Shown piece by piece: positions 5,080-56,137 of a stretch of 64,000 nucleotides of DNA. A program made the translations under genes and the position numbers. The DNA lies in the NCBI GenBank assembly GCA_963766295.1, contig CAVXYW010000001.1:196364-260363 (forward strand). Direction: 5' to 3'. This DNA is from an uncultured Actinomycetes bacterium. Its GTDB lineage: Bacteria > Actinomycetota > JAICYB01. Every line of letters starts with the position of its first letter. The first letter of the stretch is position 1. Below the pieces are notes generated by a model. That model was not told where the DNA came from, did not search any database, and was given only the letters and a program-made list of their open reading frames with translations.

Positions 5080-6134
5080 TGCGTGATGTAGCCGTCGTCG
5101 CCTTCGCGCAATCGCCGAGCATCCGGCGCGAACCGGAGCGCAACGAGGTCGAGATCCTCATGCCTGTGGTCAAAGAGGTGCTCGACTCCGTGGGATTGAC
5201 GAAGGACGACATCGGATTCACATGCTCGGGTACATCGGACTTCCTCGCCGGGCAACCGTTCTCTTTCGTCTCGGCCCTCGATGCGGTCGGCGCGTGGCCC
5301 CCGATCGTCGAGTCGCACGTCGAGATGGACGGCGCTTGGGCCCTCTACGAAGCGTGGGTCAGGCTTCAGCACGGCGATGTCGACACCGCGCTCGTGTACG
5401 CAGTCGGCAAGTCGTCGATGGGCGATCTGCTCGACGTCCTCTGCTTGCAACTAGATCCTTACGTCCTCACACCGCTGTGGCCGGATTCGATAAGCCTTGC
5501 TGCGCTGCAGGCCCGCGCATACTTGGAGAAGACCGGCAAAAGCGAGCGTGATCTCGCCGAGGTTGCCGCACGTAGTCGCGCAAACGCCAAGGACAATCCA
5601 TCTGCGCAGGTCTCGGGTGACTTCGACGCTGCCGCGTTATTGGACGAGCCGTACATCGCATCGCCACTGCGCAAGCACGACTGTCCGCCCATCTCCGACG
5701 GAGCATCTGCAGTCGTTCTGGCCGTCGGAGATCGCGCAAAAGAACTGCGCGGACGTCCGGCATGGATACGAGGGATCGATCATCGCATCGAAGCGCATTC
5801 GTTGGGCGCACGAGACCTAACACACTCCGCCTCCACGAAACTCGCGGGGGAAAGGGCCGGCGTAAATGAAACGCCGGTCGATCTCGCCGAACTGCACGCA
5901 CCCTTCACCCATCAGGAGCTGATACTTCGGTCGGCCCTCGGTCTCGGTGACGACGTCCTTGTGAATCCATCCGGTGGCGCTCTCTCGGCGAATCCCGTGA
6001 TGGTCGCCGGCCTGACGCGGATCGGAGAGGCGGCCCAACGCGTGATCTCCGGAGACGCTAAGCGCGCAGTGGCGCACGCGACGTCCGGACCGTGTCTCCA
6101 GCAGAACCTCGTTTGCGTGCTGGAGGGCGACTGA
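5079..6134 (+). CDS. Thiolase-like protein (SCP-x/lipid-transfer-protein type)
   Basis: Start taken at MRDVAVVAFAQSP (ATG 5079) inside ORF 5022..6134. Thiolase-fold C-terminus (..AELHAPFTHQELILRSALGL..NPSGGALSANPVMVAGL..). Confidence 0.85.
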   Translation: MRDVAVVAFAQSPSIRREPERNEVEILMPVVKEVLDSVGLTKDDIGFTCSGTSDFLAGQPFSFVSALDAVGAWPPIVESHVEMDGAWALYEAWVRLQHGDVDTALVYAVGKSSMGDLLDVLCLQLDPYVLTPLWPDSISLAALQARAYLEKTGKSERDLAEVAARSRANAKDNPSAQVSGDFDAAALLDEPYIASPLRKHDCPPISDGASAVVLAVGDRAKELRGRPAWIRGIDHRIEAHSLGARDLTHSASTKLAGERAGVNETPVDLAELHAPFTHQELILRSALGLGDDVLVNPSGGALSANPVMVAGLTRIGEAAQRVISGDAKRAVAHATSGPCLQQNLVCVLEGD

Positions 6135-7288
6135 TGGCGAATCCCTGTGCCGTCATCGGCATCGGACAAACCAAGCACGACACCAAGCGCGAAGACTGCT
6201 CTCAGATCGACCTCGTGAGAGAGGCAGCCGTGCGGGCACTCCAGGACGCCGACCTCACGTGGAAGGACATCGACGCCGTCGTCATCGGTAAAGCTCCGGA
6301 CACCTTCGAGGGCGTGATGATGCCCGAGCTGTTCCTCGCCGATGCGCTTGGTGCAGTGGGCAAGCCGATGATGCGCGTGCACACGGCCGGAAGCGTCGGC
6401 GGATCGACGGCGTTGGTCGCGGCAAGCCTCATCCAAGCCGGCGTGCACGATCGAGTTCTAACAGTCGCTTACGAAAAGCAATCCGAATCGGACGCGATGT
6501 GGGCGCTGTCTATGCGCATCCCCTTCTCTCCGCCGCTTGTCGCCGGCGCCGGCGGATACTTCGCTCCGCACATCCGTGAATACATCCGGCGCTCTAAAGC
6601 ACCGGATGACATCGGCATAAAGGTGGCGGTGAAGGACCGTCTCAACGGCGTGAAGAATCCGTACGCCCACCTCCACCTGCCCGACATCACCTACGAAGAG
6701 GTCCGCGACTCGCTGATGCTGTGGGCCCCGATTCGCTACCTCGAGACCTGCCCCTCGTCGGACGGAGCCTGCGCACTGGTTCTTGCGAGTGAGTCGGCAG
6801 CGAAAGCACCGGCTCCTCCCGCCTGGGTGCACGGCACAGCGATGCGTTCGGAACCGACGATGTTCGCCGGCCGCGACGAAGTGAACCCTGTCGCCGGACA
6901 GGAGTGCGCGCGCGACGTCTATTCGCAGGCGGGGATCACGGATCCGCGCAAAGAGATCGACGCCGCCGAGATCTACGTCCCGTTCAGCTGGTTCGAAGCG
7001 ATGTGGATGGAGAACCTGCACTTCGCACCGGAAGGTGAGGGCTGGAAGATGACCGACACCGGCGCAACCGCGATGGACGGCGACATGCCGATCAATCCGT
7101 CCGGTGGCGTCATGTGCTCGAACCCCATCGGGGCATCGGGGATGCTTCGCTTCGCCGAGGCGGCCATGCAGGTGCGCGGTCAGGGCGGCGAGCACCAGAT
7201 CGACGGAGCGAGAATCGCGATGGGCCACGCGTACGGCGGCGGCTCGCAGTACTACGCGATGTGGATCGTTGGAGCCGCCAAGCCCTAA
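6134..7288 (+). CDS. Thiolase-like protein (SCP-x/lipid-transfer-protein type)
   Basis: Start at MANPCAVIGIGQTKH (ATG 6134, TGATG overlap). Motifs SSDGACALVLASE and NPSGGVMCSNPIGASGM. Confidence 0.85.
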   Translation: MANPCAVIGIGQTKHDTKREDCSQIDLVREAAVRALQDADLTWKDIDAVVIGKAPDTFEGVMMPELFLADALGAVGKPMMRVHTAGSVGGSTALVAASLIQAGVHDRVLTVAYEKQSESDAMWALSMRIPFSPPLVAGAGGYFAPHIREYIRRSKAPDDIGIKVAVKDRLNGVKNPYAHLHLPDITYEEVRDSLMLWAPIRYLETCPSSDGACALVLASESAAKAPAPPAWVHGTAMRSEPTMFAGRDEVNPVAGQECARDVYSQAGITDPRKEIDAAEIYVPFSWFEAMWMENLHFAPEGEGWKMTDTGATAMDGDMPINPSGGVMCSNPIGASGMLRFAEAAMQVRGQGGEHQIDGARIAMGHAYGGGSQYYAMWIVGAAKP

Positions 7289-8109
7289 CCGCCGGTCGTC
7301 ACCACAGTCGTAGAGCCGCGCTTGACGACGGCGACCACAGCGAAGAACGCGGCGCAGACCAGAACGATTGTCCCGCCGGGAGCCAAGGCCCAGACCCGTG
7401 CGGCGGCGAGGCCGACGATCACCGACGCCATGCCGATGACGACAGACCAGCGCAGTGTGTTCCTGAAGGAATTGGACAAGAGCTGAGCCGAAGCCACCGG
7501 CAGAACCATCAGTGCGGCAACGAGAAGCAGCCCGACGATGCGCATGGAAGCGACGATGGTTACCGCCGTAAGGACGGCCAGCATCATGTTGAGCAAACGG
7601 GCGGGAACGCCGGCGACGCCGGCCCACTCCTCGTCCATCACCAACCCGAACAAGGCGCGACGGGACAGGCTGATCGCACAGACGACGACCGCTCCAAGGA
7701 TCGCGATCGTCAACAGTTCGCCGGGATCGACCGTCAGGACCGACCCGAACAAGTAGGAGAAAAGGCCAGCGTTGAGAGATTTGTCGAGACCTGCCAGGAC
7801 TACGCCACCGGCGATGCCGGTGTAGAAGAACAACGCAAGCGCAACGTCACCACTGGCTTGAGCGCGACTTCGCAACCTCTCCATCGCTACCGCGGCTAGG
7901 ACGGAAAGGATGAGAGCCGTCCAGACGGGCCAGATGTTGGCCAGTAGCCCGCCCGCGACGCCGGCGAAAGCTACGTGACCAATGCCGTCTCCCATCAAAG
8001 CCATGCGGCGCTGAACCAGGAAGGTCCCGATCAGCGGAGCCGTAGCGCCGACAATTACACCGGCCGCTAGAGCGAGCTGCATGTACTCGCGATCAAAGGG
8101 CCACGGCAT
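7285..8109 (-). CDS. znuB: Metal (zinc-type) ABC transporter permease
   Basis: 274 aa, multi-TM, ABC-3 family pattern (..MALMGDGIGHVAFAGVAGG..). In an operon with ATPase and lipoprotein genes, next to zur. Confidence 0.85.
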   Translation of the reverse strand: MPWPFDREYMQLALAAGVIVGATAPLIGTFLVQRRMALMGDGIGHVAFAGVAGGLLANIWPVWTALILSVLAAVAMERLRSRAQASGDVALALFFYTGIAGGVVLAGLDKSLNAGLFSYLFGSVLTVDPGELLTIAILGAVVVCAISLSRRALFGLVMDEEWAGVAGVPARLLNMMLAVLTAVTIVASMRIVGLLLVAALMVLPVASAQLLSNSFRNTLRWSVVIGMASVIVGLAAARVWALAPGGTIVLVCAAFFAVVAVVKRGSTTVVTTGG

Positions 8110-8111
8110 GT

Positions 8112-8876
8112 CTACCGAAGCTCCTCGAGCCAGGCCGGCAGGTCTTCGGCATGAACACCGAGACTCACACCGGACTCGATGAGTTGCTGCGGCGTACCGT
8201 CGAAGCGGACGCGATTGCGCAGAACGATCACACGATCGAGGTCTCCTGCGACAGAGCTGAGCTCATGCGATACGAGCAGCACTGAACCATCGTGTGCAAG
8301 AACGTGGTGGACGAGGGCGTCGCGAAATCGGGCCTGGGCTTCGGAATCGACGCCGGCGATGGGTTCGTCCAACACGAGCAGCTCTGGTTCGCTGGCCAGA
8401 GCTCGGGCGATGAACGCCCGCTGTTGCTGACCACCGGAGAGTTCGCTTACTCGCTTATCGCGCAATGACTCGAGCTCAACGATCTCGAGGGCGTGGGCGA
8501 TCGCTCCGCGATCCTTGGCTCCCACTCTTCGCCACCACCGACCCCGCGCGAGCCGGCCGGTTGTGACGATCTCCTCAACGGTCGCGGGAAGACTGGCTGC
8601 CAGTTGCGGACGCTGGGGAACGTAGCCAAGCCTCCACCTGTCGCGGAAGCGTTGTGGATCCTCGCCGAAGAGCATGGCTCGCCCAGCACTTGGTCGGAGC
8701 AAACCCAGAATCAGCCTCACAAGCGTCGTTTTGCCCGATCCGTTGGGGCCGACGAGGGCAACGAATTCGCGTCGCCCAACACCGATCGACACATCCTCGA
8801 CGACGGACTGACCGTTGTAGGCAAAGGAAATGCCATCGGTTTGGAGGATCGCCCCGTTTTCGGGAGTCACCGGCAA
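8112..8876 (-). CDS. znuC: Metal ABC transporter ATP-binding protein
   Basis: Walker A GPNGSGKTT, signature LSGGQQQR, Walker B LLVLDEP. The start may instead be the GTG at 8870, which forms a GTGA overlap with the znuA stop. Confidence 0.9.
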   Translation of the reverse strand: MPVTPENGAILQTDGISFAYNGQSVVEDVSIGVGRREFVALVGPNGSGKTTLVRLILGLLRPSAGRAMLFGEDPQRFRDRWRLGYVPQRPQLAASLPATVEEIVTTGRLARGRWWRRVGAKDRGAIAHALEIVELESLRDKRVSELSGGQQQRAFIARALASEPELLVLDEPIAGVDSEAQARFRDALVHHVLAHDGSVLLVSHELSSVAGDLDRVIVLRNRVRFDGTPQQLIESGVSLGVHAEDLPAWLEELR

Positions 8877-9784
8877 CCGAGACCTGAGCGCAGAGCTTCG
8901 AGGTTCTCTCGCATGACGCTCGCGTAGTCTTCGCCGTTTCCGATCTGCTCGGACGTAAGTCCTTCGATGGGATCAAGAACGCCGACTTCCGCCCCCGTCT
9001 CTCTTGCAAGGGTTTTCGCCACATCGGCGGTAACGAGCGTCTCGTAATAGATGGTCGTGACGTCATGCTCTTCGACGAAATCCGCGAGCTCTGCAAGTCG
9101 CTCCGCGTCCGGCTCGGCCTCTGGAGAAAGGCCGGCGATGGAATTCTGACCCAGGCCAAAACGGTCGGCGAGATACCCGAACGACGCGTGGCTCGTGACG
9201 AAGATGTGGCGGTCGCAAACGCTTAGCCCTTCCTCGAATTCTTCGTCGAGCTCTTCGAGAGCGTCGGTGTACACACCAGCGCCGTTCCTATAGTTGCCGG
9301 CATTGTCGGGGTCGGCCTTCGTCAGGACGCGAGCTATCCGTTCGGCCGCGGCGGCCCACTGCGCTGGATCTAACCAGATGTGCGGGTCGGCTGGTCCCGT
9401 CCCCGAGTGATCGGCTTCTCCGTCATCATCGTCATCGATCGCCCGGACCGGCGCATCATCGAGGACGTCGAGGACCACTCCTGTCGCGCGGTCGAGAGCT
9501 TCTTCGAGCGCGGGCTGGAATCCGCCGCCGACATGAAGGACTACGTCGGCATCGATGACATCGTCGAACTGATCCGTGGTGAGTTCGATGTCGTGAGGCT
9601 CGGCCCCCGGAGGCGTGAGGTTCTTCACCTCGACGCGATTACCGCCGATCTGTTTGGCGGCTTCCTCAAGGGGATAGAAAGCGGCGACAACTTTGAGACG
9701 GCCCTCGCTTCGCTCCGGTGAGTCCTGCGCGCAGCCGACAAGAACCAGGCCCGAGAGAGCCAAGCCGACGGCCAACACCCGCAT
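8867..9784 (-). CDS. znuA: Metal ABC transporter substrate-binding lipoprotein with acidic/His loop
   Basis: Lipobox signal MRVLAVGLALSGLVLVGC. ZnuA-type fold with loop AIDDDDDGEADHSGTGPADPH. Confidence 0.85.
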   Translation of the reverse strand: MRVLAVGLALSGLVLVGCAQDSPERSEGRLKVVAAFYPLEEAAKQIGGNRVEVKNLTPPGAEPHDIELTTDQFDDVIDADVVLHVGGGFQPALEEALDRATGVVLDVLDDAPVRAIDDDDDGEADHSGTGPADPHIWLDPAQWAAAAERIARVLTKADPDNAGNYRNGAGVYTDALEELDEEFEEGLSVCDRHIFVTSHASFGYLADRFGLGQNSIAGLSPEAEPDAERLAELADFVEEHDVTTIYYETLVTADVAKTLARETGAEVGVLDPIEGLTSEQIGNGEDYASVMRENLEALRSGLGCR

Positions 9785-25753: not shown

Positions 25754-26626
25754 ATGGAAACCTCGGCCACCGGCTTCGGCCTTGCCCTGCTCTTCTCGTC
25801 CTTCGCCTTCGGGTTCCGGCACGGCATCGATTGGGACCACATCGCCGCGATCACCGACATAACGTCCTCGCAGCGTTCTGTTCGCATCGGACTGAAGTTC
25901 GCAACGCTTTATGCCGCAGGCCACGCCGTTGTCGTCTTCGTGATCGGCGTCGTCGCCATCGCTGTAGGCAAGAATCTGCCGGATTCCATCGACTCCGCCA
26001 TGGGCCGCGTGGTTGGGGCGACCTTAGTCATCCTCGGCATTTACGTGCTCTATGCGCTCATCCGCTATCGAGAAGATTTCCGCTTGCGCAGCCGCTGGAT
26101 GCTGCTCTTCGACGGCGTCCGGCGTGCTTATCGGTGGGTACGACGCCGTGGGCAAGCGTCTTCGATCGAACACGAACATGTTCACTTCTCTAACGATGGC
26201 TTCGAGCACCACGATCACGACGGCGGGCTTGTGAGCGAAGGCGCTGCGTCCGTCGCCACGCGAACTCACACGCACAGCCATACGCACACGGACCCATTCA
26301 TGAACTACGGGACAGGGACGTCTCTCGCCGTTGGAATGCTGCACGGCGTGGGGGCCGAGACTCCCACGCAGGTGCTCATATTCCTCACGGCTGCAAAAGC
26401 AGGCGGCGTCGGTGCCGGGATCATCGTTCTGGCCGTCTTCCTGCTCGGCCTCTTCGCGGCGAACACCGCGCTTGCATTCGCCTCCGCCTCAGGGTTCCTG
26501 GCGGCTTCTAAGCGATTCCCGATTTATGCAGGAGTGTCGATAGTCACTGCGGTTGCAAGCTTGGTTTTGGGAGTGGCCTTCCTCCTGGGCCAGGACTCCT
26601 GGCTGCCGGTGTTCTTTGGCGGCTAG
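25754..26626 (+). CDS. NicO/NiCoT-family nickel/cobalt transporter with His-rich loop
   Basis: FGFRHGIDWDHIAAITDI matches the HX4DH NiCoT signature. Central loop is HEHVHFSNDGFEHHDHDGG..THTHSHTHTD. About 6 TM helices. Confidence 0.75.
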   Translation: METSATGFGLALLFSSFAFGFRHGIDWDHIAAITDITSSQRSVRIGLKFATLYAAGHAVVVFVIGVVAIAVGKNLPDSIDSAMGRVVGATLVILGIYVLYALIRYREDFRLRSRWMLLFDGVRRAYRWVRRRGQASSIEHEHVHFSNDGFEHHDHDGGLVSEGAASVATRTHTHSHTHTDPFMNYGTGTSLAVGMLHGVGAETPTQVLIFLTAAKAGGVGAGIIVLAVFLLGLFAANTALAFASASGFLAASKRFPIYAGVSIVTAVASLVLGVAFLLGQDSWLPVFFGG

Positions 26627-27053
26627 CTCGCCCGGCATTTCGAACACAAACCGACGATCGCGAAATGGCGGCGATCAACCTCGAACCCGTGATCCTTATC
26701 GATCGACCTTAGGAACGGCCGGAGCTTCGCCGACGGGAGCTCGATCGACGCTCTTCGCACCTTTCGCAAACCAGGTGCTGATGCTCCTCGTCGGCCAAGT
26801 GATAGATCGCACGTCCATGCCCGAGGTGCACATGGTCGACGATGCCCAACTCTTCCAAGGTCTCGAGCGTGCGGTAGATCGTCGAGATGTTCACCGAAGG
26901 GAACTTGCGCTGCACCCGTGAGGCAAGCTCCTCGGCGGTCAGGTGGTCGCGCGCGTCGAGCAAAGTCTCGACGATCACCTGTCTCGCGGCCGTGCGCCTT
27001 CCACCGGCTGCGGACAGGGCTTCAAGGATCTCTTCGGTCCGTGTTGCGGCCAT
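26623..27053 (-). pseudogene. Fur-family (Nur-like?) metalloregulator with an apparent 1-nt deletion after CERC
   Basis: ORF 26709..27065 ends in an Arg/Ser-rich tail straight after HLVCERC. Restoring one G at about 26756 gives ..CERCGRASIELPSAKLRPFLRSIDKDHGFEVDRRHFAIVGLCSKCRAS*, which recovers the second CxxC and a length of about 143 aa. The stop then overlaps the NicO stop in the palindrome GCTAGC. Confidence 0.7.
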
Positions 27054-27059
27054 GAGCAG

Positions 27060-27094
27060 TTGCAAGGTTATTGCAGTAAGGCTATTGCAGTAAG
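27060..27094. promoter_or_regulatory. TTGCAA-N5-TTGCAG-N8-TTGCAG; tandem TATTGCAGTAAG x2; candidate Nur/Fur-type operator
   Basis: Read directly. Lies 7 nt upstream of the fur-like ATG (27053) and just upstream of a TAGAAT -10-like hexamer (27113-27118) preceding the riboswitch. Confidence 0.5.
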
Positions 27095-27126
27095 CCCGGT
27101 CGAGCAGCTGTATAGAATCCGATCAA

Positions 27127-27300
27127 GCAGCGCGGTGGGTGCCCCAGCGGCCCGGATGCCCTGGGGGCGTGAGAACGCAGCGAAGCCGGTGAGAGTCCGG
27201 CGCTGACCCGCAACTGTAAGTGGGAGGCGACTCCCACGAGCCAGGACGACTCGTCCGCCGCGGTGCTCCGGTCTCCTTCGAGGAACGAGGAGGTGGAGCT
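27127..27300 (+). promoter_or_regulatory. Cobalamin (B12) riboswitch with SD-sequestering expression platform
   Basis: Core GAAGCCGGTGAGAGTCCGGCGCTGACCCGCAACTGTAAG (27182-27220) and B12-box-like GAGCCAGGACGAC (27238-27250). P1 is GCAGCGCGG/CCGCGGTGC. TCTCCTTC (27272-27279) is complementary to the SD GAGGAGG (27287-27293). Confidence 0.8.
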
Positions 27301-27302
27301 TC

Positions 27303-28526
27303 ATGAGTGGCTCACGTGCCACGACCTACCGGGCGAAGCGACGCTTGGTCGCCGTCGGTTGCTTCTTGGTCATCGCGCTCGGAGTTGTCGCGAGTGCGTC
27401 TGCATCACCAGCTTCACGCGCAGCATCGGCTGCGGCGGCGGCCCAGTGGATGGCGGATCAGCAGACCGCCAGCGGCGCGTTTTTTGCCGAAGATCTCCGC
27501 GTAGACCTGCACGCCGAGGCGCTTGCAGCAGCCGTAGCCGGCGGTATCGACGAGTCAACCCTCGAAGCAGCGTTGGAATACATCGAGGAAAACGGCGAAG
27601 CCGGTGCGACGGAAGGTGCACGTACCGGCCGGCTAGTCGCCGGCATCTTCGCCGGCGGTGAAGATCCGACCGACTTCGGCGACGCGGACTACGCGACGAT
27701 CCTTGCTTCGCAGTTCGACGAAACGACAGGCTCCTACGAGGACGGGACGGGAACACCTTACGGTGACAATCTCTTCGGCAATCTCATCGCTGCCAACGGT
27801 CAGATAGCAGCCACCGGTTCACTGCCGGATGAGGCGGTTGACTGGATCATCTCGCAGCAGTGCACGATTGGCGCAGATGCCGGTGGGTTCGGGTTCGCGA
27901 GGTGTCAATTCGGATCGGATGTCGACACCACAGCATTGGCCATCAATGCTCTCGCCAACTCCGGGACAAGCGGAGCCGGGGTCGACAACGCCCTAACGAC
28001 CGCGCGCACTTACCTTTTGAATGCACAGAACACCGACGGCGGCTACACCTTCTGCTGCGCAGGGACAACTTCCAGCGACTCGACCGGTCTCGCGCTTACG
28101 GCGGTATCCGCCCTCGGTGAGGACGCAGAGGCAACACCATGGGTCGACGGGGAGGGTGACGATCCCGTCGAGGCGTTGGAAAACCTCCAGCACGCCGACG
28201 GCTATTTCCGGTTCACCGAAGCAGACCCCGGCACCATCAACCTGTCGACCGTTAACGCACTGCCCGGTATGGCCGGTGAGTCCTACCCAGTGCAGCCTGC
28301 CGCCGTCGCACCCGATCCGACACCAACACCCGACGATCCACCGGACGATGACGACGCGGAGGACGACGAAACAACGACGCTCGACTCAGATTCCGCCGAA
28401 CCGCGGATTACCTTGCCCGACACCGGCACCGATCCCAGTAATGGACGGCCGGTGTGGCCTGTCTCGCTTGTTGCCATCGTCGGCGTCGCGCTGATGGGCT
28501 TGGCCAGAAACAAAAGAGCTCGGTGA
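27303..28526 (+). CDS. Secreted alpha/alpha-barrel (prenyltransferase/terpene-cyclase-repeat) protein with LPXTG cell-wall anchor
   Basis: Signal peptide is followed by repeated QW-like motifs (QWMADQQTASGAF, DWIISQQC..AGGFGF, LLNAQNTDGGYTF, NLQHADGYFRF). A PT/D-rich linker then leads to LPDTG, a TM helix and KRAR. Confidence 0.75.
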   Translation: MSGSRATTYRAKRRLVAVGCFLVIALGVVASASASPASRAASAAAAAQWMADQQTASGAFFAEDLRVDLHAEALAAAVAGGIDESTLEAALEYIEENGEAGATEGARTGRLVAGIFAGGEDPTDFGDADYATILASQFDETTGSYEDGTGTPYGDNLFGNLIAANGQIAATGSLPDEAVDWIISQQCTIGADAGGFGFARCQFGSDVDTTALAINALANSGTSGAGVDNALTTARTYLLNAQNTDGGYTFCCAGTTSSDSTGLALTAVSALGEDAEATPWVDGEGDDPVEALENLQHADGYFRFTEADPGTINLSTVNALPGMAGESYPVQPAAVAPDPTPTPDDPPDDDDAEDDETTTLDSDSAEPRITLPDTGTDPSNGRPVWPVSLVAIVGVALMGLARNKRAR

Positions 28527-29368
28527 AACTCTCCTTTCGTCGCGTGGCAGTCCTGGTCCTTGTTCTGTCCGCTGCGCTGGGAACGGTCGTGCTGCCATCC
28601 CCGAGGGCCGGTGGAGGAGGCTCCAATCGCGCGGGCGTGGTTGTGCGACAGAGCGATGGAACCGTTCGCGACATGTGCGTCTTCTTCGATGAAGAAGAGA
28701 TCTCCGGGTACGAGCTGCTCGTTCGTTCAGGCTTCGACTTCGAGGACGAAAACTTCGGTTACGGACATGCCATATGCAAGATCGGCCCGGACGGATGCGA
28801 CACATCCCAAGGCCAGGATTGCTTCTGCGACAAGTCCAAGTCGTGGAACTACCTCACCCGCAACAAAGGTGACCCGACCTGGGATCTGTCTCCGGTTGGC
28901 GCCGACTCGCGTGATGTCCGGGACGGCGATCTCGACGGTTGGTCTTGGGGCCCGAACGGTTCGCCTCCCAAGCCACCGGCAATGCCGTTCTCGGATGTTT
29001 GTCCGGCAGCTGCGGCTGCAACAAGCACGCCCCGGACGGTCCCGCCTTCGGGAGGAAAGAGCGGCGGCGGCGGCGACAGTCCTCCTTCCTCGGCCGGCAG
29101 ATCCGATCCGGACGGCGGTTCGGATCCAGCAGCGGGCAGGACGGAAACAGCCAGGCTCGAGCTCGAAGACGGCATCTCGCCCGAGCCTTCGGCCGGGAGC
29201 TCGCCAAAGTCAACGAACGGCGAACGCACCACTGCGCAGGAGTCCACGGACTCTGACGACACCGAGCCGGCCAGCTACCTGATGTTTGGAGGTTTCGCGC
29301 TCGGTTTCGCAGTGCTGGCTACGGCGCTCTACTTCATGCGGAGACGAAGAGCCCAGTCAGATACATAA
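28523..29368 (+). CDS. DUF4430 (transcobalamin beta-domain-like) protein, signal peptide plus C-terminal TM anchor
   Basis: GTG 28523 (GTGA overlap). SWNYLTRNKGDPTWDLSPVGADSRDVRDGDLDGWSWG fits the DUF4430 C-terminal pattern. Long S/G/P/D-rich linker, then YLMFGGFALGFAVLATALYFMRRRR. Confidence 0.7.
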   Translation: MKLSFRRVAVLVLVLSAALGTVVLPSPRAGGGGSNRAGVVVRQSDGTVRDMCVFFDEEEISGYELLVRSGFDFEDENFGYGHAICKIGPDGCDTSQGQDCFCDKSKSWNYLTRNKGDPTWDLSPVGADSRDVRDGDLDGWSWGPNGSPPKPPAMPFSDVCPAAAAATSTPRTVPPSGGKSGGGGDSPPSSAGRSDPDGGSDPAAGRTETARLELEDGISPEPSAGSSPKSTNGERTTAQESTDSDDTEPASYLMFGGFALGFAVLATALYFMRRRRAQSDT

Positions 29369-30527
29369 CGAGCACCCCTGCCGTGAAGCCGAGTGCGTTC
29401 AGCGGTGACGTTATTCCTTTGCCCTGCTTGGCGAGGAGCTTCCCGACCTCCCAAATGACCTGGACGATCGCACCCGCACCGATCGCGAGGAATAGAACAG
29501 CGAGTACCGGCGAGTAAGCCAGGCCGCCGAACCACGTCCCGAAGATCGTGGGTACGCCGGCAACAACACCGAGAAGGATGAGTTGTCTGATGCTCGGGCG
29601 TGCACGAGCCAACGGAGTGACGATGCCGAGTCCCTCCGTGATGTTGTGCAGCGTGAATCCGAGTATCAAGAACGTCGTCAGCCCGACCTCTCCGAGTGAG
29701 TAAGCAGCACCGATCGCGAGTCCTTCGCCGAGGTTGTGGAGTCCGATACCGATCGCGATGAGAGCAGCGACGTAGGACGCGGTCATCTCGGTTCGGCGCT
29801 GGCGCAGCCAGCCGTCGACTCCCCACAGCACCGCGAGCGCGGCGATGAACCCGAGGACGATCAGCCCGACACCCTGGAATGCGCCGGCTACTCCTCCGGA
29901 GATCTCCAGAGCTTCGTCGATTGCATCGACGGCGAGGAAGACCAACAATCCGGCGGTCAGTGCAAGGAAGAAGCCAACCCATTGCTCGGGAAGGCGACGC
30001 ACGAAGGGCAGCCAGCACAGGCCGAGGAAAACCGGAATAACTCCGACGAAGATGCCGACGAGCGTGAACGTCCAAAGTGCACTGGCGTCGACTTCGGGGG
30101 TCTCGACGGCGACGGCGATCTCGTGTTCGAACTTCACGCCTGAGGAAGACACGAGCACAAGGTGGTGGGTCTCACCGTCAACCCAGGGGTAAGGCACGTG
30201 AAGTGTGGCCGTGCCGAGCCGGCCCACTTCGGCGTCCGGAGATACCGTGAACTGCCAATACGCGTCGTCGACGAGAACTTGGGCGATCTTCACGGGGTCT
30301 GGGCCTCCGTTGCGAACCTTCACGACGATGTCTTGCGGATCGCTCTTCAGAGTCACGCGCTCGAAGGTGAGCTCCTCGACGGGCGGGAAGGCTTCACGCA
30401 CTCCCTCGAGAGGATCGGTGCGCACGAACGCGAAGATCACGAGCCCGAGTGCGATCAATGGAAGAAGACCGAAAACTACTACGCGAGATGTCGTCCTGCT
30501 TTCCGGCTTCTTCTCGCTAACGCTCAT
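29334..30527 (-). CDS. ZIP-family metal transporter with N-terminal TM helix and a roughly 120-aa extracytoplasmic domain
   Basis: C-terminal ZIP motifs GLHNLGEGLAIGAAY and FTLHNITEGLGIV. The N-terminal anchor and soluble domain are uncharacterised. Confidence 0.8.
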   Translation of the reverse strand: MSVSEKKPESRTTSRVVVFGLLPLIALGLVIFAFVRTDPLEGVREAFPPVEELTFERVTLKSDPQDIVVKVRNGGPDPVKIAQVLVDDAYWQFTVSPDAEVGRLGTATLHVPYPWVDGETHHLVLVSSSGVKFEHEIAVAVETPEVDASALWTFTLVGIFVGVIPVFLGLCWLPFVRRLPEQWVGFFLALTAGLLVFLAVDAIDEALEISGGVAGAFQGVGLIVLGFIAALAVLWGVDGWLRQRRTEMTASYVAALIAIGIGLHNLGEGLAIGAAYSLGEVGLTTFLILGFTLHNITEGLGIVTPLARARPSIRQLILLGVVAGVPTIFGTWFGGLAYSPVLAVLFLAIGAGAIVQVIWEVGKLLAKQGKGITSPLNALGFTAGVLVMYLTGLFVSA

Positions 30528-31623
30528 GAGCGGCCCTCAACGACATCGAAGAACCCCATCCAGCCGAGTTCGACGAACTCCGACTGATGGGCATGGAACA
30601 TGTGCATCCCGGGTTCGAAGTCGTGGAAGTGGAACTCGAGGATCCCCCTCTGCGCCTGAGCCTGCATGATCATGTCGGTGAACACGGTCGGGGTCGAGCG
30701 ACGTGCCCGTGTCGTAGTAGTTGAAGAAGTTCCCGTGCAAGTGGAACGAGTTGATCGGATCGAACTCCGTGAGGTTGACGAGGTAAAGCCGAACCTCTTC
30801 GTCGGTACCGACTCGGATAGGTGCGTTCTGATAGGCGAACGCGACGGTGTTAACGGCGTAGACCTCGTTCTCCGCGTCGAAGTCGGTGTCGAATGCGTTC
30901 ATGACCATGACCATCTCTTTGATGCCGGCGTCACGCGCACCTTCAAAGGTTCGCCTCGTTGCTGCTTCGACTTGGTCACCGTGCTTGGCAGGGTCCGGAT
31001 CGATGATGAATGCGCCGTACAGACCTTTGTGGATGTGACGCTTCAAGGGAGCCGAGTGGCAGTGGTAAAGGTGGCAGCCGAATGGGCCCGGCGTCGAACT
31101 CGTAGACCGTTCTGTCGTTGGGCTGGACGTCGCCGGCACCGATCCCGGGCACACCGTCCATGCGGGCCGAGTGGAAGCCGTGGAAGTGGATCGTGTGCGG
31201 GTGTGAGCTGCCGTTGATGAACTCGATACGCAGCCGGTCTCCTTCGGTGGCTCGAAGGGTCGGTCCTGGCACGCGGCCGTTGTACGTCCACGCCGGGAAG
31301 AACAAGCCCGGCGCGATCTCGATCTCTCGATCCTGCGCAACGACCGTGTACTCGCGAACGGTCTGACCGTTGGCTGCACGCGATACTTCACCGAAGTCCC
31401 AGTCGTAGAGGATCTCGGAAGGGTCGAAGCCGTTCTTCTTGTGGTCGACCGTCCCGACGGTTCCCATCGCTCCATGACCCGTGTGCACCGCTTCGTCCGA
31501 ACCTTGCTGTGCGTGCGAATGGGTTTGGGCATTGACCATTCGTCCCAGCAGTCCTCCGGACACCGCCGTCGCTGCGCCGATCCCACCGGCGCGCCGCAAA
31601 AGATCACGTCGCGAGATCTTCAT
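30524..31623 (-). pseudogene. Tat-exported two-domain multicopper oxidase, interrupted by two apparent 1-nt insertions
   Basis: Three frames join to give MKISRRDLLRRAGG..HTIHFHGFH..YEFDAGP|FGCHLYHCHSAPLKRHIHKGLYGAFIIDP..NSFHLHGNFF..SLDP|TVFTDMIMQAQAQRGILEFHF..MFHAHQSEFVELGWMGFFDVVEGRS*. Shifts are at about 31084-31091 (GGGCCCGG) and 30690-30693 (GGGG). The restored stop forms an ATGA overlap with the ZIP start. Confidence 0.75.
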
Positions 31624-32297
31624 GCCGCTCCCTCTCCGGGTGCCGCCGCTACTTGGACGGCTTCAGCCGCGTCCGATCCGACGACGATGTCGCTTCCGTC
31701 GACTTCGACACGGATGCCACCCCTGAAACGGGATTACCTCCGTTACACGGATCAGCGCGCCCGGACGCAACCCCAGTTCGGCGAGATGACGCAGAAGATC
31801 GGGGTCTCGGTCGCTCACGCGACGAACAACGAAACTCTCACCCGGACTCGACGCGTGCCGAGCGTTGGATACACGTCTTCGTCCAGCTCCAGACCCGCGG
31901 TCGGTATCGGATGTCCGTGCGGATCCTCCGTCGGGTAGCCGAGCAGCTCATCGAGACGCGACTCGAGTTCCTCCGAGATGTGGTGCTCAAGCGCGTCGGC
32001 CTCGGCGTGCACCTTGTCCCACGGCATCCCGACGACCTCGGCGAGATAGAGCTCGAGAAGGCGGTGGTGGCGGATCATCTCGACGGCTTCGCGTGTTCCG
32101 CGCTTCGTAAGTCGCACACCGCGATAAGGGCGATGGCTGGCGTAACCCATCTCGTCGAGCCGGCGAAGCATCCCTGAAACGGACGGAGCCTTCACGCCTA
32201 GGCGATCGGCGAGCGCCGACGTCGGTACCTCACTTCTGCTCCCGCCCAACTGATAGATGGCCTTCAGATAGTCCTGGACGGCGGTAGTCTCGGCCAT
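31620..32297 (-). pseudogene. DtxR/IdeR/MntR-family metalloregulator, interrupted by two apparent frameshifts
   Basis: ORF 31815..32297 encodes the HTH and dimerisation domains (..PSVSGMLRRLDEMGY..RHHRLLELYL..DPHGHPIP). The SH3-like C-terminus continues in two other frames (..PGESFVVRRVSDRDPDLLRHLAELGLRPGALIRVTEVIPFQ|GGIRVEVDGSDIVVGSDAAEAVQV..). Shifts are at about 31846-31860 and at the CCCC run 31720-31723. The restored stop forms an ATGA overlap with the oxidase start. Confidence 0.7.
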
Positions 32298-54136: not shown

Positions 54137-55726
54137 TTAGAGAGTGGATTCGGGCTTGTAGGTGCCCCACTCTTCACGAAGAACACCGCACACCTCGCCG
54201 AGCGTGGCCATGCGACGGAAGGCTTCTTTCATCACTGGAAGCAGATTGTCTTTTCCTCTTGCTGTAGCTCGTACGTCCTCGAGGGCTTCCTTGACCGCCG
54301 CGTTGTCGCGTTCGGACCGAATGCGGTCGAGCTTGGCTACTTGTCGTTTGCCAATCGTCGGATCCAGCTTGAGGACCTCCGTCGGCTCTTCTTCAGCAAC
54401 GACGAAATCGTTTACGCCCACAACGACTTGCTCTGACGCCTCGATGCTCTTCACCTCGCGATAAGCGGCCTCTTCGATCTCGCGCTTCATCCAAGTGATC
54501 GACTCGACGGCACCTCCGCGATCAAGCACCTTTTCGAGAAGGTCCTTGGCTCGCTCCTCCACTTCGGCCGTGAGTTTTTCGATGTAGTACGACCCGGCCA
54601 AGGGGTCCACCGTGTCCGGGACACCTGTCTCGTGAGCCAAGATCTGCTGCGTCCGAAGGGCCAGGCGCGCTGAGGTGTCCGTGGGGAGACCGAGCGCCTC
54701 GTCCATGGAGTTCGTGTGAAGTGACTGCGTGCCCCCGAGAACGGCGGCCATCGCCTGGTAGGCCACTCGAACGACGTTGTTCTCGGGCTGTTGAGCCGTC
54801 AGCGTTGCGCCGTCGGTTTGTGTATGGAAGCGGAGCTTCAAAGCATTCGGAGAAGACGCCCCAAATCGATTGGCCATGATTTCGGCCCAGAGGCGGCGGG
54901 CGGCGCGAAACTTCGCAATCTCCTCGAAGAAGTTGTTGTGGCATCCCCAGAAGAACGAGAGCCGAGGTGCAAACTCCTCCACATCGAGACCTGCCGCAAG
55001 CGCGGCCTCGACGTACGCCACACCGTCGGCAAAAGTGAATGCGATCTCCTGAACGGCCGTGCAGCCCGCTTCCCGCATGTGATAGCCGGAGATCGAGATC
55101 GTGTTCCATCTCGGAATGTTCTTGGCGCAGTAAGCGAAGGTGTCGGTGATGAGCCTGAGCGCCGGCTTGGGCGGATAGATGAACGTGCCGCGCGCGATGT
55201 ACTCCTTGAGCACATCGTTCTGGATAGTTCCACCGAGCTTGGACGTGTCGGCGCCCTGACCCTCGGCAGCCAGCTCGTAGAGCAGCAGGAGCATCGCCGC
55301 AGGCGCATTGATGGTCATGGATGTCGTTACCTGCTCCATCGGGATCTGATCAAAGAGCGTCTTCATGTCCTCGACGGTGTCGATGGCCACGCCGACCTTG
55401 CCAACCTCAGTGGCGGCCATCGGATCGTCAGAATCGAAGCCCATCTGCGTCGGAAGATCGAAGGCCACCGACAGCCCCGTTTGGCCGTGGTCGAGCAGAT
55501 AACGGAAGCGCTTGTTGGTTTCCTCGGCTGTTCCGAAGCCGGCGTACTGACGCATGGTCCACAGACGGCCCCGGTACATCGTCGGCTGCACGCCGCGCAT
55601 GAATGGGAAGACCCCGGGCTCGCCTAGGCGCGACGGAAGATCGAGGCCTGCTACGTCCTCCTCGCTGTAAACGGGTTGGATCTCGATGTCCGAGGACGTC
55701 AGGCGAGGCTTTTCATCAGCTGCCAT
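54137..55726 (-). CDS. Methylmalonyl-CoA mutase-family catalytic (large, B12-domain-less) subunit
   Basis: Start at [60 protein letters not shown]. No cobalamin-binding domain in this polypeptide. Confidence 0.88.
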
Positions 55727-55759
55727 GCTTCGATGGTAGAGCTTTATAGGGGAGGCGGA

Positions 55760-56137
55760 ATGGCCAGACGAGTACGACCGCGCGACCGGAGGGTGCAGCA
55801 GGGCGAGCACCCGGGACTTTCGCGTGAGATTGCAATCAGCAATCCAACCGTCGGAAGCGAAGGGATCTATGCGTCGGTCTTGGTCACTCCTCCCGGAGGA
55901 TCAACTCGCATGCATCACCACGGCGAATGCGAGACGTCGATCTACATCGTTTCAGGCCGCGCCAAGTTCACGTGGGGACCTACCGGCACAGAACACGAGC
56001 TGATAGCCGATCCCGGGGATTTCGTCTACATCCCCGCAGGCGAGGTGCACACGGAGTCGAACGTCTCGCTAACTGAGCCGCTCGAAGTAGTTGTAACCAG
56101 GAACTGTCCGGACTCGGTGACAATCGTCGTCGACTGA
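55760..56137 (+). CDS. Cupin-domain protein
   Basis: GGAGG precedes ATG 55760. [32 protein letters not shown]. Confidence 0.8.

Follow-up and report, generated by a model that had tools for sequence, protein, structure and literature searches.

Bacterial surface proteins that combine an alpha/alpha toroid with a transcobalamin-like SLBB domain were predicted by Burroughs, Balaji, Iyer and Aravind in 2007 to scavenge B12 or its precursors (PMC1796856). These systems, which are mostly found in Firmicutes and are of the DUF4430 type, resemble the locus that is reported here in having a toroid and a transcobalamin-like beta-domain; they occur as fusions and as operons with paralogous SLBB proteins, and they are encoded beside CbiQ and a CbiO-type ATPase (PMC1796856). 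In 2019, a transcobalamin-like pair that is split into two secreted polypeptides was reported from Lactobacillus sakei: Lsa1839 (beta-like) and Lsa1840 (alpha-like), encoded in the ECF operon lsa1836-1840, are proposed to sandwich a tetrapyrrole and then to pass it to an ECF S-component (bioRxiv 10.1101/864751). Given the prediction of 2007 and the L. sakei pair, a split bacterial B12 scavenger is not novel as an idea.

Two further groups of proteins are relevant to the comparison. The eukaryotic carriers transcobalamin, intrinsic factor and haptocorrin combine an alpha6/alpha6 barrel with a small beta-grasp domain, as does the pair that is introduced below, but they are single soluble polypeptides, whereas our proteins are predicted to be anchored and are encoded by two genes; the similarity is found at the level of the fold only, with no detectable similarity in sequence. 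In Bacteroides, the surface proteins BtuG and BtuH capture corrinoids with high affinity, feed a membrane transporter and are under the control of a B12 riboswitch; they share with our pair the functional idea of surface corrinoid capture and the riboswitch control, but their folds are unrelated, they are outer-membrane lipoproteins of Gram-negative bacteria, and their partner is the TonB-dependent BtuB. To our knowledge, the capture of trace levels of B12 by bacteria that lack an outer membrane is still poorly understood, and we know of no extracellular binder for the characterised importers ECF-CbrT, BtuM and BacA.

Here, we have analysed a two-gene operon in a 64-kb stretch of DNA, which we refer to as “the window”, and we consider it probable (roughly 70%) that this operon is a cell-surface capture module for corrinoids (vitamin B12) that is switched off by B12. 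The split transcobalamin-like architecture, which had been proposed from the letters of the DNA, is supported by the folds of the two proteins, by the riboswitch and the genomic context, by the conservation of the pair and by natural fusions. Compared with the systems of Burroughs et al., the window has two separate genes, a beta-domain of a divergent, cysteine-rich family (PF28005/SCO2322-like) and no linked CbiO or CbiQ. The L. sakei pair has been linked by experiment with the uptake of heme, it shares its operon with the ECF genes and it is anchored in a different way; in the accessible part of the source, no riboswitch is reported. A further counterpart is of the Streptomyces SCO2321/SCO2322 type (locus L086): homologous barrel and beta genes occur in the same order, with RF00174 upstream, but the Streptomyces operon continues into CbiQ, a double ABC ATPase and an ECF S-component, which are missing from the operon of the window. 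The putative capture device is of a widespread kind, the existence of which had been predicted in 2007; the window is unusual only in missing the usual transporter genes, and no new principle is involved. The features of the locus are collected in Table 1.

Table 1. Features of the operon and of the mutase gene, in positions of the window.
Feature	Position	Strand	Basis or remark
Cobalamin riboswitch aptamer (RF00174)	27120..27272	+	conserved core ~27184-27219, B12-box region ~27239-27260
Expression-platform hairpin	27265..27299	+	minimum-free-energy (MFE) folds; gene 1 start codon 27303
Gene 1, alpha subunit, 407 aa	27303..28526	+	AF2, Foldseek, family profile
LPDTG sortase-type motif of gene 1 (residues 371-375)	28413..28427	+	invariant in P0015-P0023
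Gene 2, beta subunit, 281 aa	28523..29368	+	GTG start within GTGA overlapping gene 1 stop
Gene 2 globular beta-domain (residues 36-166)	28628..29020	+	AF2 model, pLDDT 94.6; SCO2322/PF28005-type family
Gene 2 TM anchor (~residues 252-272), then RRRRAQSDT	29276..29338	+	sequence; kept in close homologues
Methylmalonyl-CoA mutase catalytic subunit	54137..55810	-	Pfam MM_CoA_mutase, E 1.9e-222, 739.8 bits; outside operon

The leader of the operon carries a class-I cobalamin riboswitch: it matches the full length of RF00174 (model positions 1-189) with 46.9 bits (E 1.3e-8, cmscan), the gathering score being 31.5 bits, and this is the sole Rfam match within the window. The core that the original prediction had placed at 27182-27220 falls within this match, and the element has been re-detected at 137 bits by a covariance model of our own. 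The same prediction had proposed an anti-SD segment able to sequester the SD of gene 1, and the pairing is indeed present in the MFE folds, where the SD sequence GAGGAGG (27287-27293) is base-paired by CUCCUUC (27273-27279); a search of the leader for a terminator-like site has found none. Over a stretch of 57 nt (27255-27311), the window and the related loci L006 and L007 are 100% identical, even though the gene 1 proteins of the three are only 55-60% identical.

Gene 1 encodes a signal peptide (residues ~1-35), an alpha/alpha toroid (residues ~37-334, nt 27411-28304) and an acidic Pro/Thr linker, followed by the LPDTG sorting signal, a hydrophobic segment and a basic tail. The four expected QW-like repeats have all been located, starting at residues 49, 181, 238 and 292. 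As a single sequence, the protein matches the Pfam families Prenyltrans and SQHop_cyclase only below threshold, while its family profile matches squalene-hopene cyclase with E 6.6e-28. The AF2 model (pLDDT 93.4, pTM 0.92) has as its best Foldseek matches the class II terpene cyclases 8pak and 8paj (E 2e-8, TM-score 0.70-0.72, query-length normalised); the transcobalamin alpha-domain follows at rank 17 (E 4.8e-5, TM-score 0.60, with the same normalisation). Family profile, model and structure search all agree on the alpha/alpha barrel that had been proposed for gene 1, which is, judging from the model, a member of the alpha/alpha toroid (prenyltransferase/terpene cyclase) superfamily, with a predicted barrel that is structurally nearer to the single-domain class II terpene cyclases than to the transcobalamin alpha-domain. 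Gene 1 does not match Pfam PF01122 (Cobalamin_bind). Its score against NCBIfam NF053823 (SCO2321 family membrane protein, equivalog) is 63.6 bits (E 1.5e-17), far under the cutoff of 300 bits, so it is homologous to this family but is no equivalog. We have also considered gene 1 as a class II terpene cyclase and have rejected this assignment, with the DxDD(TA) catalytic motif being incomplete and the location extracytoplasmic: residues 206-211 (DVDTTA) are aligned to DVDDTA of squalene-hopene cyclase, and the third aspartate is absent.

As to the anchoring of gene 1, the linker that had been described is present, and the segment PRITLPDTG.DP, the hydrophobic stretch and the basic tail are unchanged in the nine closest homologues; more distant homologues are without LPDTG and have a TM anchor only. 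The Gram_pos_anchor and TIGR01167 HMMs do not match gene 1, and no sortase has been seen among the ORFs of the window that were scanned.

The GTG start of gene 2 has been confirmed over the stop codon of gene 1, an overlap that suggests translational coupling, and it is supported by P0002, P0003 and P0007, which begin at the equivalent Met. The signal-peptide-like N-terminus, the long, low-complexity stalk and the C-terminal TM segment are all seen in the sequence as had been expected; RRRR follows the TM segment, the stalk would be flexible, and the globular domain occupies residues ~36-166. Six cysteines of this domain, which would be rich in disulfides, are invariant (52, 85, 92, 100, 102 and 160). 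The elements of the model (E3-10, E16-23, H30-37, the hairpin E41-46/E49-55, E74-81 and E105-112) follow a beta-beta-alpha-hairpin-beta-beta topology, and the modelled domain has the five strands, the single helix and the hairpin directly after the helix by which Burroughs et al. 2007 define the transcobalamin-like clade of SLBB beta-grasp domains. The best 18 Foldseek matches from the PDB, all with probability 1.00, are either 3u7z (a DUF4430 protein) or the beta-domains of transcobalamin, haptocorrin and intrinsic factor, and the scores fall steeply after them; superposed on the isolated human beta-domain, the model has a TM-score of 0.65 (target-length normalised; probability 1.00).

The sequence of gene 2 matches no Pfam family at E<=1, PF14478 (DUF4430) and Cobalamin_bind included, and no PDB sequence, either as a single sequence or as a family profile. 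The DUF4430-type domain of the original prediction therefore holds for the fold, by way of 3u7z, but not for the sequence, and the resemblance is structural only. Against NCBIfam NF040672 gene 2 scores 13.9 bits (cutoff 85), and PF28005 (SCO2322) has no precomputed match on its closest relatives (P0001-P0008) but is present on homologues at E 1e-39 to 1e-52; we thus treat gene 2 as a homologue of the PF28005/NF040672 family. As far as we have seen, no function is attached to the database entries NF053823, NF040672 and PF28005, and the results reported here tie SCO2322, an uncharacterised Pfam/NCBIfam family, to the fold of the transcobalamin beta-domain.

The conservation of the pair has been explored in 80 genomic loci, found with the profile of a closer beta-domain subgroup. 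In at least 60 of 64 loci the gene for the beta-domain comes immediately after that for the barrel, and a cobalamin riboswitch is located 5' of the pair in 64 of 66, so that the expected enrichment of homologous pairs behind such riboswitches is evident and this mode of control is almost universal among the related loci. The end of the riboswitch lies 46-469 nt upstream of the barrel homology in 59 loci, with a single match per locus, and the covariance model has no matches elsewhere over ~1 Mb. At its gathering threshold, Rfam has independently confirmed the element in 6 of 10 loci and in the Streptomyces locus; it has missed the other four, of which at least one (L022) is a sister-family AdoCbl element just under threshold. 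An ECF importer (CbiQ T-component and A-A' double ATPase) is encoded downstream in 57 of 64 loci, the ECF S-component of related operons being PF12822; the S-component of one related locus has no match among PDB sequences. Natural fusions, in which the barrel precedes the beta-domain as in transcobalamin, are rare (P0034, P0036, L008). A PduO-type adenosyltransferase gene is part of the operon in L004 and 5 loci, and in L002 the pair is directly upstream of CobC-like, CobT and CobS genes. The family comprises ~3,800 representative clusters, which come for the most part from Chloroflexota and Actinomycetota; with its Streptomyces SCO2321-SCO2325-like operon, it is a candidate for the first step of trace B12 capture, and it bears on the proposal of a bacterial origin of animal transcobalamin.

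The window, L006 and L007 are without the ECF module, and in the five other ECF-less loci no common alternative transporter has been found. As had been noted for the window, no transporter is present in the operon, and the ORFs examined across the 64 kb include neither ECF genes nor genes of the Btu type. NicO-like and Fur genes flank the pair at one end, while ZIP, DtxR-type and multicopper oxidase genes are found at the other end, a synteny that is retained in L006 and L007. The clade of the window is a minority form in which no transporter is linked to the pair, the alpha subunit is predicted to be anchored by a sortase and the neighbouring genes are those of metal homeostasis; it belongs to the minority of lineages that retain the binder without a linked transporter.

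In the mechanism that we propose, scarcity of B12 would leave the ribosome-binding site open, and the two proteins would be produced at similar levels; the barrel, linked to the wall, and the beta-domain, tethered to the membrane, would then enclose one corrinoid, in the manner of the two domains of transcobalamin, and the captured corrinoid would be passed to an importer, which in most relatives would be the ECF transporter encoded immediately downstream, while in the clade of the window its genes would have to lie at another locus. At high levels of B12, the ligand would stabilise the sequestering structure and translation would be turned off. The hand-off step is without a linked partner, since no importer adjoins the pair in this clade. 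It is conceivable, if doubtful, that the pair of this clade has become uncoupled from any dedicated importer and acts on its own, either as a relay from the wall to the membrane or as a means of hoarding: B12 could drive the heterodimerisation of the peptidoglycan-linked alpha-barrel with the beta-domain on its ~85-residue membrane stalk, and the vitamin could be pulled through the wall to an unrelated transporter (e.g. a BacA-type ABC protein) or be withheld from competitors. Our searches of the literature (SCO2321/2322/2323, DUF4430, riboswitch with prenyltransferase, CbrT with transcobalamin) have returned no biochemical study of the pair.

The capture of B12 has to be weighed against other ligands and roles. 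That the pair serves in salvage, with incomplete corrinoids (cobinamide) or other precursors of cobamides as its ligands instead of complete B12, is unlikely, although the genes that follow it in L002 are those of lower-ligand attachment and the wording of Burroughs et al. leaves B12 or its precursors open (PMC1796856): at most loci the ECF importer alone accompanies the pair, and no sequence feature separates the ligands. This explanation would refine that of B12 capture and does not replace it. Heme or another tetrapyrrole, the ligand proposed for Lsa1839/Lsa1840, is quite unlikely here; deletion of the L. sakei ECF operon with its split pair lowers heme uptake, and heme can be docked at the modelled alpha/beta interface, but the evidence at this interface is docking and no binding measurement, and the proteins are of the DUF4430 type, i.e. 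of another sequence family than our pair (bioRxiv 10.1101/864751). The riboswitch found upstream of nearly all related operons (64/66) and the cobalamin adenosyltransferase or CobT/CobS genes found in some of them also argue against heme.

With the ECF module missing from three loci and present in 57 of 64 relatives, the operon of this clade could be a decaying remnant that has lost its function along with the ECF genes; this is very improbable, as neither ORF is disrupted in any of the three genomes (window, L006 and L007), the proteins of which have diverged to 52-66% identity, every family-invariant residue is retained, the six cysteines included, and the fully conserved leader and the clade-specific, invariant LPDTG point the same way. 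Cobalt transporters are often under the control of a B12 riboswitch, and the syntenic metal genes that flank the pair would suit a role in the handling of cobalt or another metal instead of a corrinoid; such a role is nevertheless extremely unlikely, with neither fold being a known metal-ion binder, the riboswitch facing the pair only, and the neighbours beyond this clade being ECF vitamin-type importers and no metal genes. It is hardly credible that gene 1 is an extracytoplasmic enzyme that modifies terpenoid or prenyl groups of envelope lipids and is linked with B12 through regulation only: class II terpene cyclases and prenyltransferases are its best matches in sequence and structure, and its DVDTT segment aligns to a catalytic motif, but this motif is incomplete, the protein is predicted to be secreted and wall-anchored, remote from isoprenoid diphosphate substrates, and its invariable partner, to which it is fused in some cases, is a beta-domain of the transcobalamin type, after which a vitamin-type ECF importer follows.

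Lastly, the mutase subunit that had been assigned to 54137-55726 is present in the window, but its actual ORF extends to position 55810; belonging to a B12-dependent enzyme family, it suggests that the organism uses B12.

The two overlapping genes that follow the cobalamin riboswitch, gene 1 (alpha subunit, the barrel) and gene 2 (beta subunit), probably encode a corrinoid-capture module, a reading to which we assign a probability of about 0.7. The window itself contributes the riboswitch, an in-silico pairing of the Shine-Dalgarno (SD) sequence, the overlapping genes, two modelled folds and anchoring motifs, while related loci contribute a near-universal linkage of the pair to the riboswitch and to an ECF importer.

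Coordinates of the features discussed in the text
Feature	Position	Strand	Remarks
ZnuABC-type transporter	7285-9784	-	Only ABC system among the ORFs examined in the window
Fur-family gene	26709-27065	-	Divergently transcribed from the operon
Cobalamin riboswitch RF00174	27120-27272	+	Rfam, 46.9 bits; gathering score 31.5; E 1.3e-8
Gene 1	27303-28526	+	407 aa
Gene 2	28523-29368	+	281 aa
ZIP-family gene	29334-30527	-	Convergent; 35-nt overlap with the 3' end of gene 2
Methylmalonyl-CoA mutase catalytic subunit	54137-55810	-	MM_CoA_mutase match

The cobalamin riboswitch of the original prediction is recovered above the Rfam gathering score, as the sole Rfam match in a scan of the entire window, and is flanked by the Fur-family gene and the 407-codon ORF of gene 1. 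The proposed sequestration of the gene 1 SD is also present in minimum-free-energy folds, where GAGGAGG (27287-27293) is paired with CUCCUUC (27273-27279) in a hairpin (27265-27299); as no terminator-like site was found in the leader, these predicted folds make translation the likely level of control. The 57 nucleotides at 27255-27311 do not differ between the window and two syntenic genomes, L006 (5577-5633) and L007 (5613-5669), despite gene 1 proteins that are only 55-60% identical to that of the window, a contrast that suggests selection acting on the RNA. This identical expression platform takes in the first three codons, an unusually strong conservation for a leader.

With gene 1 alone, the Pfam matches (Prenyltrans, squalene-hopene cyclase) stay below threshold; when 23 homologues are combined into a profile, squalene-hopene cyclase chains are matched at E 6.6e-28. 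Four QW-like repeats begin at residues 49, 181, 238 and 292. The model of its ectodomain (residues 37-334; pLDDT 93.4, pTM 0.92) is all-helical, with about 12 helices; its best Foldseek matches in the PDB are the single-domain squalene-hopene-cyclase-like structures 8pak and 8paj (E ~2e-8), followed by drimenyl diphosphate synthase, with transcobalamin at rank 17-18 (7qbe_C, E 4.8e-5, probability 1.00, TM-score 0.60 normalised by query length). By these matches the modelled protein is an alpha/alpha toroid, in agreement with the barrel originally proposed, and the transcobalamin alpha-domain is a significant structural match of the model, yet not the nearest one. In the alignment, gene 1 reads DVDTTA where the cyclase catalytic motif has DVDDTA; this difference, together with secretion, speaks against cyclase activity. 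At its C-terminus, LPDTG precedes a hydrophobic stretch and a basic tail; this putative sortase signal is invariant as a whole in the nine nearest homologues and specific to the clade of the window, while more distant homologues have a plain transmembrane anchor instead.

The GTG start codon of gene 2 at 28523 forms a GTGA overlap with the stop codon of gene 1, and homologues start at the equivalent residue; both support this start (281 aa) rather than Met51, where the deposited protein P0001 begins. P0001 (231 aa, MCVFFDEE...) thus lacks both the signal peptide and the domain's first beta-strand. Gene 2 has no match in Pfam and no sequence match in the PDB, family profile included, and the “SCO2322 family” of NCBIfam is matched only faintly; homologues are matched by Pfam PF28005, named SCO2322 in contig annotations. 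The globular part (residues 36-166) contains six invariant cysteines and a DGW.WG motif, and its model (pLDDT 94.6) has the topology beta-beta-alpha-hairpin-beta-beta. The best 18 Foldseek matches in the PDB, all of probability 1.00, are the DUF4430 protein 3u7z (E 6e-5, TM-score 0.82 normalised by target length) and the beta-domains of transcobalamin, haptocorrin and intrinsic factor, after which the probability drops to 0.66 or less. Since the transcobalamin-like clade is defined by a beta-grasp whose helix is followed by a hairpin (Burroughs et al. 2007, PMC1796856), the predicted DUF4430-type domain holds for the fold and, given the lack of a Pfam match, fails for the sequence family. The cysteine-rich beta-domain suggests Sec export; the proteins of the pair may be exported folded, possibly ligand-loaded. 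Twin arginines precede the hydrophobic core of both signal peptides (AKRRLVAV, 27303-27410; SFRRVAVL, 28523-28620), in a loosely Tat-like manner.

A degenerate-pattern scan, with one genome per species, has yielded 80 loci, mostly from Chloroflexota and few from Actinomycetota; the patterns were derived from the beta-domain, so these loci sample only genomes that have it. The barrel gene lies directly 5' of the beta-domain gene in at least 60 of the 64 loci with enough upstream sequence, and, as had been expected of homologous pairs, a riboswitch precedes the pair in 64 of 66 such loci, ending 46-469 nt before the barrel homology in 59 of those 64. The riboswitch counts come from our own covariance model, built from seven Rfam-verified riboswitches (its E-values are rough, owing to a shortened calibration), which has a single match per locus, on the operon strand in every case, and none elsewhere in ~1 Mb; Rfam itself verifies the riboswitch in 6 of 10 loci and in a Streptomyces locus. 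Several Chloroflexota operons (L022; also L016, L020 and L034) have cobalamin-clan riboswitches just under the gathering scores, which would escape standard annotation; the L022 element (5123-5264), from a locus missed by Rfam, scores 47.3 bits for the sister AdoCbl family RF01482 (gathering score 50). The ECF T-component (CbiQ) and a double ABC ATPase follow on the same strand in 57 of the 64 loci whose downstream sequence reaches 3 kb or more, and at least 18-24 loci carry a recognisable S-component (PF12822). In some operons there is also a PduO-type adenosyltransferase gene, or CobC-like, CobT and CobS genes; the Streptomyces locus is complete (RF00174, barrel, PF28005, CbiQ, ABC-ABC, S-component).

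An exhaustive HMM search places 3,847 representative clusters in the beta-domain family (677 at E<=1e-30). Among the best 150, the beta-domain nearly always comes right after the signal peptide, with only about four having it at residue 350-390; judged from these sequences, split genes are the rule and fusions, barrel then beta-domain (a true fusion in L008; proteins P0034 and P0036), the exception. Tandem beta-domain genes, or tandem complete pairs, occur in L018 (two copies), L046, L051 and L077, reminiscent of the single operons with paralogous SLBB proteins described by Burroughs et al. (PMC1796856).

The same authors described bacterial secreted or wall-anchored proteins with an alpha/alpha toroid and a transcobalamin-like SLBB domain, usually encoded with CbiO and CbiQ and proposed to scavenge B12 or its precursors (PMC1796856). 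In L. sakei, according to a preprint (bioRxiv 10.1101/864751), an ECF operon encodes the beta-like (Lsa1839) and alpha-like (Lsa1840) subunits of a transcobalamin as separate proteins. The SCO2321 and SCO2322 families are already in NCBIfam and Pfam, with no stated function visible there. The operon of the window thus belongs to an already known, computationally predicted kind, of which it is a variant in three traits: its beta-domain comes from a divergent, cysteine-rich family, the pair has no linked transporter, and the alpha subunit has a putative sortase anchor. The literature searched contains no biochemical demonstration of B12 binding by any bacterial member, though one may exist.

The main alternatives concern the ligand: it could be a different tetrapyrrole, heme being implicated for the L. 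sakei pair in the same preprint, or the pair could prefer incomplete corrinoids. If B12 is captured, both ectodomains would close around one corrinoid, like the two domains of transcobalamin, concentrating B12 locally for uptake by an importer, which in the clade of the window would be encoded elsewhere; B12 would repress the synthesis of both proteins.

The prediction of an operon without a transporter agrees with the window, where no ECF or Btu-type genes were found among the ORFs examined in 64 kb; a linked ECF module is absent from ~11% of sampled loci, and the other loci without such a module share no substitute transporter. The predicted mutase is present and, as a member of a B12-dependent enzyme family, suggests that the organism uses B12; its ORF has no B12-binding domain match at E<=0.001, only the catalytic domain, so a separate gene may encode the cobalamin-binding subunit.

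The window, L006 and L007 share the order NicO-like gene, Fur, riboswitch, pair and convergent ZIP gene. Metal-homeostasis genes are dense around the operon, with the ZnuABC-type system and, at 25754-32297, NicO-like, Fur-family, DtxR-family, ZIP and multicopper-oxidase genes, an arrangement kept in both loci; the NicO-like permease scores 26.2 bits, just below the Pfam cutoff of 27.7. The ZIP-family protein is unusually long (397 aa), its Zip domain occupying only residues 249-356, behind an extensive N-terminal region that matches no family. The multicopper-oxidase gene, with a Tat signal (30537-31623, minus strand), is seemingly split over two overlapping reading frames, either as a frameshift pseudogene or through an assembly error: the ORF at 30976-31623 carries the N-terminus and Cu-oxidase_3, and the ORF at 30537-31607, in another frame, the HCH copper-site segment.
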